From IMG/VR virus record IMGVR_UViG_3300028888_000001: a stretch of DNA of 64,000 nt; one strand, written 5' to 3'. The position numbers and the translations under genes were made by a program. Positions 48,694-58,706 of this stretch are shown here, one piece after another. The notes beneath the pieces were generated by a model that was given only the letters and a program-made list of their open reading frames with translations, was not told where the DNA came from and ran no database searches. Within the stretch, counting starts at the first letter, position 1, and every line of letters begins with the position of its first letter. The stretch comes from a virus (Duplodnaviria > Caudoviricetes).

Positions 48694-48924
48694 ATTTTAT
48701 CACGTTAGAAATGCCATTATTAAGAGGGATTTCATTATTCATTCAGCTGCAGTAAGATATTGTTCATGAATACCTCCTTTCTAATATTATTAGTCTCTCA
48801 TTAATAATGGCTTTCTATATATTAAATTTTTTGTCGATTATATATTATAAATTTGAATGTAAAAATAACAAGCATGATATTATAAAATTTTACATTCAAA
48901 TTTATTTATAAGGGAGTGATAAAA

Positions 48925-50020
48925 ATGGCTTTTAATCTAGAGAATCAGATTCAAAATAATATTAAAGATTTACCGGATTACAACTATATGCTAGGTAGAA
49001 CTTTAATGCAGCCTTTTAAGCCTAGTAACTCTGGATCACGAGCATTGATGTCAGCTATACATGTTGAGCATTTAATGGTTCCATCAAAACCGGAAACCCC
49101 ATTAGTTCAAACCGGATATGAAACTGAATTTGGCGAGATGTCTACTAGTTATATCGAAGCTAGTGGTAATTGGGAAGTAATTTATAAAATAAACAAATTT
49201 TCATTTAACAACAATCATTATTATCTCATAGTAAGAAATCTAGAGACTGGTATATATGATGTGATTGAGAGAGTCACGTATAAACATAATACAGAGTCTT
49301 ATGGATATATGTGGGATAACAGTCGTATTGATGCGTTGAATATCGGAGACGTTATTAAAGATAAATCCATCATTAAAACTTCTAAAGGCTTTGACGAATT
49401 TGGAAATAAAATGAATGGAGTTAATCTATTAACGTTATATTTAAGCTGTGGACAGAATATGGAAGACTCGATCATTATATCTGAATCTGCAGCGAAAAAA
49501 CTTGAGACTAATCTGATAGAGAATACGTCGATCACCATAAATGATAATGATATACTATTAAATCTGTATGGTGATTATAATACGTATAAAACATTTCCTG
49601 ACATTGGGCAGAAAATAAACAACGGCATATTCTGTGCAATAAGAAGATTAGAGAATGAAAACTTATTATTCTCTCTATCTCAGCAGAGATTGAGAGATAT
49701 AATGATTTCAGATAGAAAAATTATAATGGATGGATATGTAGCAGACATCGATGTCTATTGTAACAATGTAGAAGCTCTTGGAGATTCTACTTATAATAAG
49801 CAGCTTTATAAATATTATCAAGAAAGAATTAATTTCTGTAGACAAGTATATGATCTTGTTGGCCCAATAGCATTAAATAACCAGATGACTTATGATCTAC
49901 AAGAGTTATTTGGAATTGCTAGAGATACCATTACAGGAAAGCAGTTTTTTAAAGAACGACAGTTTAACAATGTCATCATGGAAGTTACAGTAATGCATCC
50001 ACTGCCAATAATGGACGGAG
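48925..50020 (+). CDS. multisubunit RNA polymerase beta subunit C-half, exon 1
   Basis: QPF...SRALMS, GQNMEDSIIISES; ends just before the conserved GDK motif. Confidence 0.9.
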
Positions 50021-50516
50021 AAACTATATAGTTATCTCAGCGCATTTAGTAATAAGTGCGTTCCTACGGGGTTAATTGCAGGTAATTGGTAAAGCCTCGC
50101 ACCAAAGCGGAATCTGAAAAGATAGACGTAAAGGGACGAAAGTAGAAAAAACGCGAGGATGGTATATGGTTAAATGAAAAGTAAAGTGTATAGTCGGTAA
50201 TATACTTTACCCCTAAGTACTATTTAAAAATCCATGTTCTTGCAGCGAAACACCTAAAAGATTTTATCTCATGGTGGACGTTCAACGACTATCCGATGGC
50301 ATCGGAGTAAAGCCGCAAGCTAAAGGCGGAAGAAAAATCCCGGCCCTATTCTTATAGGGATGATAAATAGTCTATGCACGTTTCGAAAGAAAGTGACTTG
50401 GAATTGACCAAGCAATATATGTTGCGAATATATTGAAATCTGGCTCCCGTTTTAAATAAATACAATTTTCTCAACACCTCGGTAAATCTTAACTCGGAAA
50501 GGTGGTGAGAAATATC

Positions 50517-51722
50517 ATGAGTAATTCTACTTATATAAAAGGGTTTAAATATCGAATTTATCCAAATGATTGTCAAAAAGAAATTATAAATAAATTTGTG
50601 GATATGTATAGATTTGTTTATAATTGGGGTCTAGCTCTTGAAGAAGAGACATATCAAAAGTTCTTAAATGGAGAATCGGAGAAACGATTTTTATATTTCT
50701 TTGATCTATGCGCCGAATTTAAAAAGTTCAAATCTATAGAAGAAAATTCTTGGGTTTGTGAGCTTCCAAATACAACTGCGCGTTTAGCATTAAGAGATGT
50801 AATATATTCATTTCAAAAATTCTTTAAAAAGATAAATAGGTACCCAAAATTTAAATCTAAAAAGCGAAGTGTAAAAACTTTTAAAACTAGATCGGATAGA
50901 TTTTCATTTAATGATGATGGGAAGCTAAGATTTGAAGGCCTTCCTAAAGCATTTGTTGATGCTGCTTCCGATAGAGTTGATTTGCACTTCGATTGTGGAT
51001 TTAGAGATGAAAAATTTATACAGCCTTCTATTTCTATTGATAATCTTGGACGATATTGGGTTTCATTTTCTGTGGAAACTGAATGTGAAGTTCTTGACAC
51101 TCCAAAAACAGAACCAATAGGTATCGACTTAGGAGTTAAGACTACAATAACACTTTCTATAGGAGAGAAATTTAATAAACCCAAAGAAAAGTTAGAAAAA
51201 ATACAGCGTCAAATTAAGAAAGCCAATAGACGCGTTTCTCGTGATATTAATCGAAGATTTGCCGAATCAAGACGTACGAAAACCAAGTACGAAGATATAC
51301 CCAAAAGTAACCGCGCTATTAAGCGACAAGAAAAACTTTCTAAGTTATGTAAAAGACGGTATAATATCAAACGCAATTTCTATCATGAAACTGCTAAAAA
51401 GATAGTATTAAGGAATCCTGAAGGCATTGTGATGGAGACTATTCCAGTTCTTGAAACTATGAGAAAATATAAGAAAACAGCGAAATTTTTAGCTGACGCT
51501 GATTTCTATTTAATTACTCAAATTTTCAAAGAAAAATGCACGAAGTATTCTGTTCCGTTTATGCAAGCTGATAGATCATTTCCTTCATCGCAAATTTGTT
51601 CTAATTGCGGGTCAACTAGAAAAATTGGCGGTTATCATACTTATATTTGTCATAAATGTGGTATGAGAATGGATAGAGATATCAATGCTGCTATAAATCT
51701 TAGAAATCTATTCTTCGCTTAA
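50517..51722 (+). CDS. tnpB: TnpB RNA-guided nuclease
   Basis: KGFKYRIYPN HTH, IGIDLG (RuvC-I), IVME (RuvC-II), CSNC/CHKC Zn finger, DRDINAAINL (RuvC-III). Confidence 0.93.
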   Translation: MSNSTYIKGFKYRIYPNDCQKEIINKFVDMYRFVYNWGLALEEETYQKFLNGESEKRFLYFFDLCAEFKKFKSIEENSWVCELPNTTARLALRDVIYSFQKFFKKINRYPKFKSKKRSVKTFKTRSDRFSFNDDGKLRFEGLPKAFVDAASDRVDLHFDCGFRDEKFIQPSISIDNLGRYWVSFSVETECEVLDTPKTEPIGIDLGVKTTITLSIGEKFNKPKEKLEKIQRQIKKANRRVSRDINRRFAESRRTKTKYEDIPKSNRAIKRQEKLSKLCKRRYNIKRNFYHETAKKIVLRNPEGIVMETIPVLETMRKYKKTAKFLADADFYLITQIFKEKCTKYSVPFMQADRSFPSSQICSNCGSTRKIGGYHTYICHKCGMRMDRDINAAINLRNLFFA

Positions 51723-51937
51723 AGCTTTAACGGTTTATACAAATAGCTGGGTAGGTGTTGTATGAACTTTTGTACCGGGCACTGCTCTCGGGAATTTAAG
51801 TTCGTGGAGAATTGTATTTTATATTATAGTATTTACTCGGTATTTCGGAGCCGAGACTCTATTCTCCTTATTGGGAGGATAGGGGTTGCTATAGTATAAA
51901 TTAGTTTGACGAAGCGAAAAGGCGGGAGCCAAAGCAG
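51723..51937 (+). ncRNA. putative omegaRNA scaffold / element right end
   Basis: GAATTTAAGTTCGTGGAG...GACGAAGCGAAAA resembles IS200/605/607 right-end motifs; nested stems such as TTTATATTATAGTA/TGCTATAGTATAAA. Confidence 0.65.
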
Positions 51938-53082
51938 ATAAACTTTCCGATCGGTATGGCGGTAAAGGTGTAGTTTCAAAAATACTTCCAGATAACAAAA
52001 TGCCAATACTTGAAAATGGTGAAGTTGTAGACATTATTAAGAACCAGAGTACGTGTATTAATCGTGAGAATATTGGTCAGCTGCATGAGCAGTCATTGAA
52101 TTTCATTGGTATGAGAATTCTTGACTTCTTTAAAACAAATGTGCTGACATACTCTGAGATGGTTCAGATGTGGTATAAATTCGTTTCTATGGTTGATCAA
52201 CCTCAAGCACAGATGGGCGCTGGGATGATTGACTTCTATGACGAAGAACAATGCAGATTGTTTATAGAGTCTATCTATGACGATGGTGGTATTATATTAT
52301 CATCTCAGCCGTTTACGACTCCTATAAATCTAGATACTATAGCAGAAATCTATAAAGAATTTCCATTCATTAAACCCTATAAGGTAGCTATGCCTATAGA
52401 AGACAGTAATGGTAATATAAGATTTGTAAAGTCCAAAAGAGACTTAGTTGTTGGAAAAATTTATAATTATAGACTCAAACAATATGCAGAGGAGAAATTC
52501 TCTGTAACGTCTTTATCGGCTACCAATCTTAAGAACTTAAATACTCGTTCTAAAGCTAATAAAGCGTATGAAACTAAGTATGCTAAGACACCGATCATGT
52601 TCGGTACCATGGAATCTGGTAACCTGTCTCATCTAGGCATGCAATATGTGGTAATGAATCTCATGCTATATAGTAGTAGCCCTAGAGCTAGAAGACTGTT
52701 TGAAGAGCTATTAATTGGAAATCCATATGATATCAATATAGTATTGGACAAAGACAGCAAAAATAGAAACGCTGAAATCATCAATGCTTTATTGAAAACT
52801 ATGGGTTTGAAATTAGTATTTTCAAAAGAACCAAAAGAAAAGAAAACCATGATGAATAATATTATGTATGAGCTTGTAAGTGCTAAAGACTTTAAACCTA
52901 AAACTAATATTAGACAGATCATGGACTTTTATGATGATGAAATAGAGCTTAAATATGCTGGAGCTCTTCATCATAAAAATAATAAACCAATGTATAATCT
53001 TATAATGATGGAGGATGTCAACAATGACGAACCTCAAACAAATATTAGAGCAATCATTGAAGAATCTGACGGAGAAGAATGA
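51938..53082 (+). CDS. RNA polymerase beta subunit C-half, exon 2
   Basis: KLSDRYGGKGVVS, MP...G..DII.N, RENIGQ, YRLKQ, FGTMES; spliced product 746 aa. Confidence 0.9.
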
Positions 53083-56877: not shown

Positions 56878-58706
56878 AACAGAGAGAATTTATACATGAG
56901 TATAACAAACAAAACAGACCTAAATTTAATAGAAAATTCTTTGAGCGGCACGATGAAGATTTAATCAATGCACTTAGATACGTTGTATACTCATGTGAAA
57001 GAGATAATGTTTTTGTCATAAAAGTATTATCTTTTGAAGTGATAGATAGCTATGATGATGTTAATCATGTCTTATGGGAATATGAAGATTCCATTATGAA
57101 TAAGACAAAAACGAAACGTGAAGAAAATGCCGCTGCAGCGAAGAAACAGAATAATGCTGTAAAAAAGAAAGATAATCAGTTTGCTTATATCAATCTTAAA
57201 GGATCAGCACTTAAAGTTATTAAAGTAGTATACTTCATACAGATAAATGAAAAGAAAAATGGACTTGTGTCTGATACTGTAACAGTATACATTGCAATTC
57301 CAAGAATAGTAGATGGATTCTATTACAAGCTCAACGGTAACATTTATTCTGCTATATATCAAATTGTAGATGCATCTACTTATAATAACTCCGCCGCGAA
57401 GAATACCAAAAAGCAATCTATTACATTCAAAACTATATTTATGCCCATAAGAGTTTACAGATATCAGAATAATCTTACAGATATAGATGGAAATAACGTT
57501 CAGACTATATATTTTATAGCAAATATGTTTAGAAAGTCATTGCTGCTTATAAAATATATGCTAGCAAAGATGGGTCTTTATAATTGTATGAAATTCTTAT
57601 ACATCGAAGGTGTATATTTTATACAAGAAGACCAGCTGAATAAATTTTCAAAAGAGCAGTTTTACATATTCCCAATAAATCCAATTAAAGATATTTATAT
57701 AGTTTGTAATAGAATGATGTTTGACTCTGTACAGATTGTTCAATCATTTGTATACACTGTACACCATATTATTTTGCTTAATAAAGATTTTACATTTGGA
57801 GATTTATTCGGTGAAAAAATGTGGGTTAAATCTTTAGGTGCAGAATTCACTTCAAAAGATATAGATACGATATATGACAAAGGTAAAAACATTTTAGCAT
57901 CATTAGAATTTATCTACGATATGATGACTATGCAAGATCTTAAGTTATCTATGGAAGATAAATCTGACGTTTATAGAGTATTAAGGTGGATGATGTATGA
58001 GTTTAACTCATTACGTCAAAAAGACAATCTTGATATCTCTACTAAGAAAGTTAGATATGCTGAATATCTTGCTATGTACTATGCTGCTAAACTAGCTAAA
58101 GGTATTTACAGAATATCTGATAAAGACAATAGGGCAGATCTTAATACTATAAGAAAAGCTATACAAATACCACCAATGTATTTGATTAATGCTATAACCA
58201 CAAAATGCCAGTTGGTGAATTATAAGAACTGTGTTAATGATCTTGATAGTCTTATAGCATTAAAATACACATATAAAGGTATATCTGGTATTGGAGAACG
58301 CTCTAACGCTATCTCAGGAGCATACAGAAATGTACATCCATCTCATCTAGGACGAGTTGATATAGACTCAAGCTCAAACTCAGATCCTGGAGTAAGTGGT
58401 ACAATTTGTCCATTGGCTGAATTATATGACGGCCATTTTACCGAATATGAAGAGCCATCTACTTGGAATGAAAACATGGTTAAAGTCCTAGATATTTATA
58501 GAGCGGCTAAGAGCAAGCAAGAAATGATTAGACTCTTAGATGACACCGAAGTTTCAAAACACAAAAGTAATATCAAAGAAATATTAGAACAAGAAGTTGT
58601 AGCAGCAAGAAATCTTTTATCTGTTGAATTATACACTACAGATGAAGAATATATTAATGGCTATGATATTTTTGGTGACGGATATTTCTTTGTGGAGAAC
58701 GAATAA
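56874..58706 (+). CDS. multisubunit RNA polymerase beta subunit N-half
   Basis: IP.IVDGFY.KLNG; RNVHPSHLGRVD....DPG.SG aligns with RpoB RDVH.THYGR.C...PEG. Confidence 0.85.
   Translation: MKQREFIHEYNKQNRPKFNRKFFERHDEDLINALRYVVYSCERDNVFVIKVLSFEVIDSYDDVNHVLWEYEDSIMNKTKTKREENAAAAKKQNNAVKKKDNQFAYINLKGSALKVIKVVYFIQINEKKNGLVSDTVTVYIAIPRIVDGFYYKLNGNIYSAIYQIVDASTYNNSAAKNTKKQSITFKTIFMPIRVYRYQNNLTDIDGNNVQTIYFIANMFRKSLLLIKYMLAKMGLYNCMKFLYIEGVYFIQEDQLNKFSKEQFYIFPINPIKDIYIVCNRMMFDSVQIVQSFVYTVHHIILLNKDFTFGDLFGEKMWVKSLGAEFTSKDIDTIYDKGKNILASLEFIYDMMTMQDLKLSMEDKSDVYRVLRWMMYEFNSLRQKDNLDISTKKVRYAEYLAMYYAAKLAKGIYRISDKDNRADLNTIRKAIQIPPMYLINAITTKCQLVNYKNCVNDLDSLIALKYTYKGISGIGERSNAISGAYRNVHPSHLGRVDIDSSSNSDPGVSGTICPLAELYDGHFTEYEEPSTWNENMVKVLDIYRAAKSKQEMIRLLDDTEVSKHKSNIKEILEQEVVAARNLLSVELYTTDEEYINGYDIFGDGYFFVENE

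Follow-up and report, generated by a model that had tools for sequence, protein, structure and literature searches.

An IStron of the IS607 type very probably interrupts the RNA polymerase (RNAP) beta-like gene of a jumbo phage and, as part of the same joint reading, very probably self-splices from the transcript after a G (G50020). The element occupies positions 50021–51937 (1917 nt) of the window, by which we mean the whole 64,000-nt stretch analyzed here (IMG/VR record IMGVR_UViG_3300028888_000001), and is best described as "group B"-like: a group I ribozyme is followed by an intact tnpB and a guide-RNA-like right end, without TnpA. Splicing after G50020 is a strong inference from sequence rather than a demonstration. 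Host-gene homology and covariation across eight elements both bear out the original prediction on this point, namely that the 5′ splice site follows a G and that a G–C pair takes the place of the customary U·G.

Host gene and splice junction

Exon 1 of the RNAP beta-like gene ends ...ATGGACGGAG, with 50020 as its last base, and the open reading frame that contains it (48916–50031) stops three codons inside the intron. The intron starts AAACTATATAGTTATCTC and ends ...CCAAAGCAG at 51937. The sequence 3′ of it reads ATAAACTTTCCGATCGG..., and exon 2 thus has ATAAACTTTCC as its 5′ end; its first bases, AT AAA CTT TCC, complete GAT (D), after which the protein continues as KLSDRYGGKG. The first in-frame start codon of exon 2 lies at 52000, 20 codons past the junction. 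The intron thereby interrupts the Gly-Asp codons of the GDK motif. All 46 RNAP homologues collected from viral contigs are continuous at this point, with no indel relative to exon 1 plus exon 2, and every one displays the motif ...GD|K(L/M/I)x(D/N)R(Y/H/F)GGKG. Because the 46 homologues keep GDK without a length difference, the mature message is read as GGA-GAT-AAA.

The trinucleotide AGA stands at both intron boundaries (50019–50021 and 51936–51938), and this repeat permits four junctions: after G50018, A50019, G50020 or A50021. None of the four is preceded by U, and a terminal intron G is left only by G50020|A51938. Group I chemistry needs G as the last intron base. Read from the sequence, G50020 must be the last base of exon 1 and G51937 that of the intron, the very junction that had been proposed; the coordinates originally given for the intron, the guide and the AGA repeats also proved exact on re-reading. 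The four gyrB introns of the same phage, which had been called canonical, are so: their upstream exons end in GGT and the introns end in G. This intron-rich phage gives seven hits to the Rfam group I model over its 313-kb genome: at least two are gyrB introns seen in the window, and five lie outside it (at ~80.0, 113.6, 216.9, 301.6 and 303.4 kb).

Architecture of the element

The features of the element and its host gene are collected in Table 1. A full-length alignment to the Rfam model RF00028 (model positions 1–253) scores 28.1 bits (E 1.3e-4), below the 50-bit gathering score, with P2 aligned to the first hairpin of the model. The ribozyme is conserved in the sibling elements described below, and parts of it (38–51% of the query) are 72–77% identical to stretches in Staphylococcus and Enterococcus phage genomes. 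After the two small hairpins that follow the core comes GAATAT (50426–50431); in published IStrons, the insertion sequence (IS) part starts after a GAAUAU-type motif (PMC4227781). A long-range stem then loops out tnpB. Stems enclosing the open reading frame have been described for group B IStrons and are AU-rich in the published members (PMC4227781); that of the window is GC-rich, whereas the sibling L056 has a longer, AU-rich equivalent.

Table 1. Features of the interrupted RNAP gene and of the element, in window coordinates
Feature	Position	Strand	Evidence or remark
RNAP beta-like gene, exon 1	48916..50020	+	ends ATG GAC GGA G; homologues read straight through
P1 hairpin	50018..50038	+	RNA fold; covariation counts
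Group I ribozyme core, P2 to P9	50036..50395	+	Rfam RF00028
P2 hairpin	50039..50062	+	AGCGCATTTA / TAAGTGCGTT, GTAA loop; directly 3′ of guide
Two small hairpins, read as P9.1 (CTTGGAATTGACCAAG) and P9.2 (GCAATATATGTTGC)	50397..50431	+	block conserved in siblings
Long-range stem, 5′ arm	50441..50453	+	pairs 51919–51931, 13 bp including two G·U; read directly
tnpB, 401 aa, apparently intact	50517..51722	+	Pfam HTH_OrfB_IS605, OrfB_IS605, Cas12f1-like_TNB
Right end, 215 nt, likely guide-RNA (omega/reRNA) scaffold	51723..51937	+	core shared with RAGATH-18
RNAP beta-like gene, exon 2	51938..53082	+	Pfam RNA_pol_Rpb2_6, E 1e-11

In an alignment of 26 proteins, the RuvC residues D204, E307 and D388 of TnpB and its two CxxC pairs of zinc cysteines do not vary; the protein is on record on two contigs. 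The element holds no second open reading frame and no trace of TnpA, and no serine recombinase (Resolvase domain) was found across the 313-kb phage genome. Its right end carries the 3′ arm of the long-range stem (51919–51931) followed by the last six nucleotides, AAGCAG, ending at G51937.

Within the right end, a 21-nt core, GGGAATTTAAGTTCGTGGAGA, is common to the RAGATH-18 RNAs of IS607-type elements, and a stem in 51772–51792 covaries among the siblings. RAGATH-18 is an RNA reported next to IS607 TnpBs (PMC11061315). The RAGATH-18 covariance model (RF03064) gave no hit on the window right end even at E 10, nor was RAGATH-18 detected in the four siblings scanned (L056, L057, L060 and L084). 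Among the nearest bacterial TnpBs (28–32% identity), RAGATH-18 follows tnpB in eight of nine loci and a group I intron precedes it in three of nine. The position of the RNA directly 3′ of tnpB was seen both in those eight of the nine bacterial loci (among L090–L103) and in phage c-st (L089:2981–3050). The right end of the window clade is diverged beyond the reach of the RAGATH-18 Rfam model. From these sequence features, the IS607-type assignment of the element is well supported, if not complete.

The element is single-copy in its phage genome, and a megablast search of the region against GenBank phages found no close relatives. TnpB proteins 47–61% identical to that of the window were found only in metagenomic contigs. 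A TnpB profile scan of bacterial genomes gave nothing above 32% identity, and a TnpB-based scan of viral contigs gave only short zinc-finger matches. Scans for the motif at the ribozyme–IS junction returned no bacterial genome and one viral contig, L062, with a ribozyme fragment only; in metagenomes the same scan returned 21 stretches, of which only L079, its left end missing, was related. The fragment in L062 (6866–7035) comprises only the 3′ half of a related ribozyme. It lies between two small open reading frames, is not followed by a TnpB and has the appearance of a decayed remnant.

Guide pairing across eight elements

As had been noticed, the guide TTATCTC (50032–50038) is complementary to the ligated junction GAG|ATAA; the match is an exact reverse complement (7 of 7), and by our own arithmetic the chance of finding a given 7-mer within the first 45 intron bases is ~0.2%. 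In P1, GAG (50018–50020) and the A that follows pair with TCTC (50035–50038), and the upper stem is AACT/AGTT with A50034 bulged. G50020 faces C50036 and A50021 faces U50035, with the 5′ splice site between G50020 and A50021. The window guide is without any G, and therefore no wobble pair is possible. In the RNA fold of 50013–50062 (−15.9 kcal/mol, z = −3.8), P2 is 10 bp long and P1 stacks on it without a gap.

Positions 50022–50033, 2 nt past the 5′ splice site, make up a perfect palindrome of 12 nt, AACTATATAGTT, which forms the upper P1 stem; L177 carries a similar one, GCTATATAGC. At the level of DNA, the window palindrome could also serve as a binding site for the left end. A second TTATCTC inside the ribozyme (50264–50270) was considered as an alternative guide and rejected, since it is unmatched in the one sibling compared (L056); this copy is probably due to chance. 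At the 3′ end, a TGC after P7 had been proposed to pair with the GCA before the terminal G. Two of these P9.0-like pairs, CA/UG, are conserved in all siblings read, and the third is present in two of the first five.

The comparison with homologous introns that had been called for was made with seven sibling loci, at ~5 other sites, that have a complete element or readable left and right ends. They share the layout of the window element. In all seven, the upstream and downstream frames lie on the same strand and rejoin in frame after G and after CAG, respectively; counting the window, the junction restores the reading frame on paper in eight of eight elements. The junctions of L057 and L060 were placed by protein alignment to L084. 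In every element the guide was defined by position, as the heptamer that immediately precedes the "AG" at the start of P2 (Table 2).

Table 2. Boundaries and guides of the window element and its seven siblings (RNA letters; the bar marks the boundary)
Element	5′ boundary	Guide	3′ boundary
Window	GGAG|AAAC	UUAUCUC	CAG|AUAA
L056	GGAG|AAAC	AGAUCUC	CAG|AUCA
L177	GGAG|UAGC	CAAUCUC	CAG|AUAC
L084	GGAG|AAAC	AAAUCUC	CAG|AUUU
L057	GGCG|AAAU	AACUCGC	CAG|AGUU
L060	GGCG|AAAU	UGUUCGC	CAG|ACAC
L178	GGGG|AAAC	ACCUCCC	CAG|AGAA
L180	GGCG|UGAC	AACACGU	CAG|UGUC

The sibling IStrons (L056:2440–2460, L177:945–965, L084:1480–1495, L178:1008–1020 and, in L180, near 1000–1010) sit in Gly-Asp/Glu or Gly-Val codons of large phage genes. 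At the L056 and L177 sites, a DYDGD motif in the translated sequence looks like the metal-binding catalytic loop of RNAP beta-prime. A Pfam search of the host-gene exons of the siblings gave no family, and their description as RNAP subunits rests on motifs that were read (DYDGD and a zinc CxxC cluster) plus one match to a window gene. That gene, at ~57955–58691, is 61% and 43% identical to the homologues interrupted in L178 and L180, and itself appears, from overlapping matches, to be uninterrupted at both sites and thus to be an empty target site. Several other contigs with sibling TnpBs (L085:1, L179:1, L061, L087, L088 and L059) are cut off at the left end of the element or just inside it, with L085 starting exactly at GGAG|AAAC. 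Such breaks would be consistent with several copies, or with a mixture of intron-plus and intron-minus populations, in the samples concerned.

All eight elements lie after GGNG and end in CAG. Matched against its own ligated junction, the guide pairs at 7 of 7 positions in two siblings, 6 of 7 in two, 5 of 7 in two and 4 of 7 in one (L060). Pairs were counted in our own 8-row mini-alignment, with columns chosen by fixed distance to P2 and some rows related to one another; in it, 83.9% of all cells are paired, compared with 61.4% in shuffles (0 of 500 reach 83.9%) and at most 47.5% in slid registers. The three pairs of the exon–guide helix form in 100% of cells, across eight elements and ~6 sites, and P10 is paired in 72% of cells; of the seven guide pairs of P1 and P10 together, five show changes on both sides.

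Within the exon–guide helix, all eight elements have G–C at −1; the pair at position −2 is A–U in four elements, C–G in three and G–C in one. At +1, an A–U pair is found in seven elements and U–A in one. The first base of the intron is A in six of the eight elements and U in two; the guide base facing it is U in seven, A in one and G in none. Hence none of the eight can form a wobble beside the cleaved bond, and both pairs that flank this bond are Watson–Crick, G–C plus A–U (U–A in L180). The covariation tracks each insertion site, and selection for splicing predicts such a pattern.

This pattern bears on the alternative that the element stays unspliced, with RNAP either split into two polypeptides or inactivated by a transposon, and with the ribozyme decayed. 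In its favor, split RNAP subunits are common in jumbo phages, the ribozyme reaches no more than 28 bits, and the viral contig L062 retains a ribozyme fragment only. We nevertheless consider this alternative unlikely: the break falls inside the GDK...GGKG motif, exon 2 offers an in-frame start only at 52000, the siblings read have kept the P9.0-like CA/UG as well as the terminal G, and only selection for splicing would keep a guide–exon pairing that covaries with the insertion site.

Splicing in the canonical manner after a U elsewhere, at the cost of a slightly altered RNAP, is very improbable. [quoted passage not shown] The guide, moreover, has no G for a wobble and pairs with GAG|AUAA, an arrangement repeated in the seven siblings.

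The AGA repeat had been likened to the crossover core of an IS607-type serine recombinase, which might explain the junction. IS607 TnpA does require that target and element end carry the same core dinucleotide (bioRxiv 10.1101/2023.11.20.567912), and AGA is found at both ends in the window, L056 and L084. That such a core alone sets the junction and leaves the G–C pairing incidental is nonetheless scarcely credible. The left and right ends differ in L057 and L060 (CG|A left, AG|A right) and in L177 (AG|T left, AG|A right), and L180 has G|UG (DNA G|TG) at both. TnpA is missing from the element and the Resolvase domain from the phage genome, and the C opposite G(−1) is invariant while its neighbors covary. 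AGA as a fixed core is thus not upheld by the siblings. Common to both ends are the G (8/8) and, in seven of eight, the base after it; the same guide nucleotide pairs with that base in the intron and in exon 2, which is enough to give the two ends their resemblance. A serine-recombinase core may have played a part in the past, but no recombinase is present now.

An assembly or sequencing error at −1, such as a missing T near 50020–50022, is the least probable alternative of all: it was raised because GAGATAAC would make a tidier hairpin, no further point in its favor was found, and against it stand the GGAG|AAAC left ends of L056 and L084 and the GGGG|AAAC left end of L178 in independent assemblies, the record of the TnpB protein on two contigs and the published rule of G at −1 for this class of IStron.

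Published IStrons and a proposed model for splicing and homing

The splicing-after-G reading is correct but is already published for IS607-type IStrons (2014, BcISt1); the window element is a new, phage-borne IStron with modest variations, namely GGNG...CAG ends and no shifted U·G at +1. In 2014, Tourasse, Stabell and Kolsto (PMC4227781) distinguished two groups of IStrons: group A (IS200/IS605-type), in which the 5′ exon ends in U, and group B (IS607-type), in which it ends in G. With RT-PCR and sequencing they demonstrated in vivo splicing of BcISt1 after G. According to a 2026 review, the exon-terminal G of IS607-type IStrons pairs with C (PMC13565253). The IS607 link made in the original prediction is right in kind, given this published splicing after G (PMC4227781, PMC13565253), the IStron architecture and the RAGATH-18 RNAs near the nearest bacterial TnpBs. 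Like group B members, the window element has a G as the last base of the 5′ exon, paired with an intron C, an IS part after P9.2 and a TnpB. The group B consensus is insertion after GG, an end in CGG and a start with U, for which a U·G shifted by one position was proposed (PMC4227781); the window clade differs in its GGNG...CAG ends and in having A–U or U–A at +1 and no shifted U·G.

BcISt1, the type member of group B from the Bacillus cereus group, resembles the window element in its 5′ ribozyme, IS part after P9.2, ORF B, ORF-enclosing stem and exon ending in G. It lies after AGGG, ends in CGG, has U as its first base and retains TnpA remnants, whereas the window element has GGAG...CAG, a first base A paired with U, and no TnpA. 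The TnpB-like match found in a Bacillus mobilis genome, possibly from an element other than BcISt1, is ~31% identical to the window TnpB. ORF A, the IS607 serine recombinase, is often degraded or absent in group B members and is absent in CsISt1 (PMC4227781). CsISt1, an atypical group B member from Clostridium sporogenes, matches the window element in boundary pattern and coding content as described: "ORF B only", insertion after AG and an end in CAG (PMC4227781). It resides in a bacterial chromosome and measures 2369 nt as against 1917 nt.

CboIStron (CbISt3-4; C. botulinum and phage c-st) has an IS607-type TnpB whose guide RNA spans the 3′ splice site (bioRxiv 10.1101/2023.11.20.567912; PMC13521648), and its splicing competes with guide formation (Zedaveinyte et al., bioRxiv 10.1101/2023.11.20.567912; NAR 2026, PMC13521648). 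The c-st copy is phage-borne, like that of the window, and the two right ends share a GGGAAUUUAAGU..GGAGA core. Its TnpB is ~32% identical to the window TnpB, and RAGATH-18 is detected in c-st but not in the window. The CboIStron TAM is TGGG, and the ends of the c-st copy as read here, GAGG|UAAC...ACGG|UAAA, are unlike those of the window; in this copy, the guide G located 5′ of CCUC faces U(+1), confirming the group B consensus pattern. A further comparison is the intron of the PhiPA3 RNAP gene, likewise a group I intron in a jumbo-phage RNAP gene. It uses a protein-guided HNH homing endonuclease, a nuclease that can act on co-infecting relatives (PMC11620839), whereas the window element encodes TnpB and a likely RNA guide. 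By analogy, the window element would be an RNA-guided counterpart of the PhiPA3 homing-endonuclease intron.

Judged from the sequence, self-splicing of the transcript most likely follows the two steps usual for group I introns. Cleavage at the 5′ site would occur after G50020, Watson–Crick paired to C50036 within the 3-bp helix GAG/CUC that stacks on P2. After step one, the 5′ half of the guide, UUAU, would pair with AUAA of exon 2 as P10, and G51937 would serve as the terminal G. The constant 3-bp length of the exon–guide helix and its abutment on P2 suggest, by our own inference, that the site may be measured from the base of P1.

The right end probably doubles as the 3′ part of the intron and as the guide-RNA scaffold. 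Constraints on the DNA probably dictate the G at −1: the element family always lies after GGNG, in IS607-type elements the insertion site as well as the TnpB TAM, and the guide sequence of the ribozyme would have adapted to match. GGAG, the last four bases of exon 1, is a likely TAM-like target motif; at the ends of IS607-type elements, TAM, transposon end and splice site coincide in one set of bases (Sternberg laboratory papers, bioRxiv 10.1101/2023.11.20.567912). Together with a following A or U, GGNG coincides with Gly-Asp/Glu and Gly-Val codons. By analogy with published IStron biology, the first ~16 nt of exon 2 would be the guide and target of TnpB. An intact TnpB with such a guide could cut intron-less alleles in co-infecting phages, with repair copying the element in. 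Only tentatively, and with more doubt than belief, do we extend this to the clade as a whole: it may have dropped the G·U wobble altogether, with a fixed 3-bp helix on P2 acting as a ruler for a distinct mode of site choice, and may have evolved in such a way that one sequence is both TAM and splice donor for TnpB-guided homing between jumbo phages.

The published rule that IS607-type IStrons splice after G is hereby supported in a new setting. For annotation, gene callers and intron finders that require U at −1 will misplace such junctions in jumbo-phage RNAP genes. The eight natural variants, in which the G–C pair is kept, its surroundings covary and no wobble is available, form a series for the study of how a group I core picks its site without G·U.
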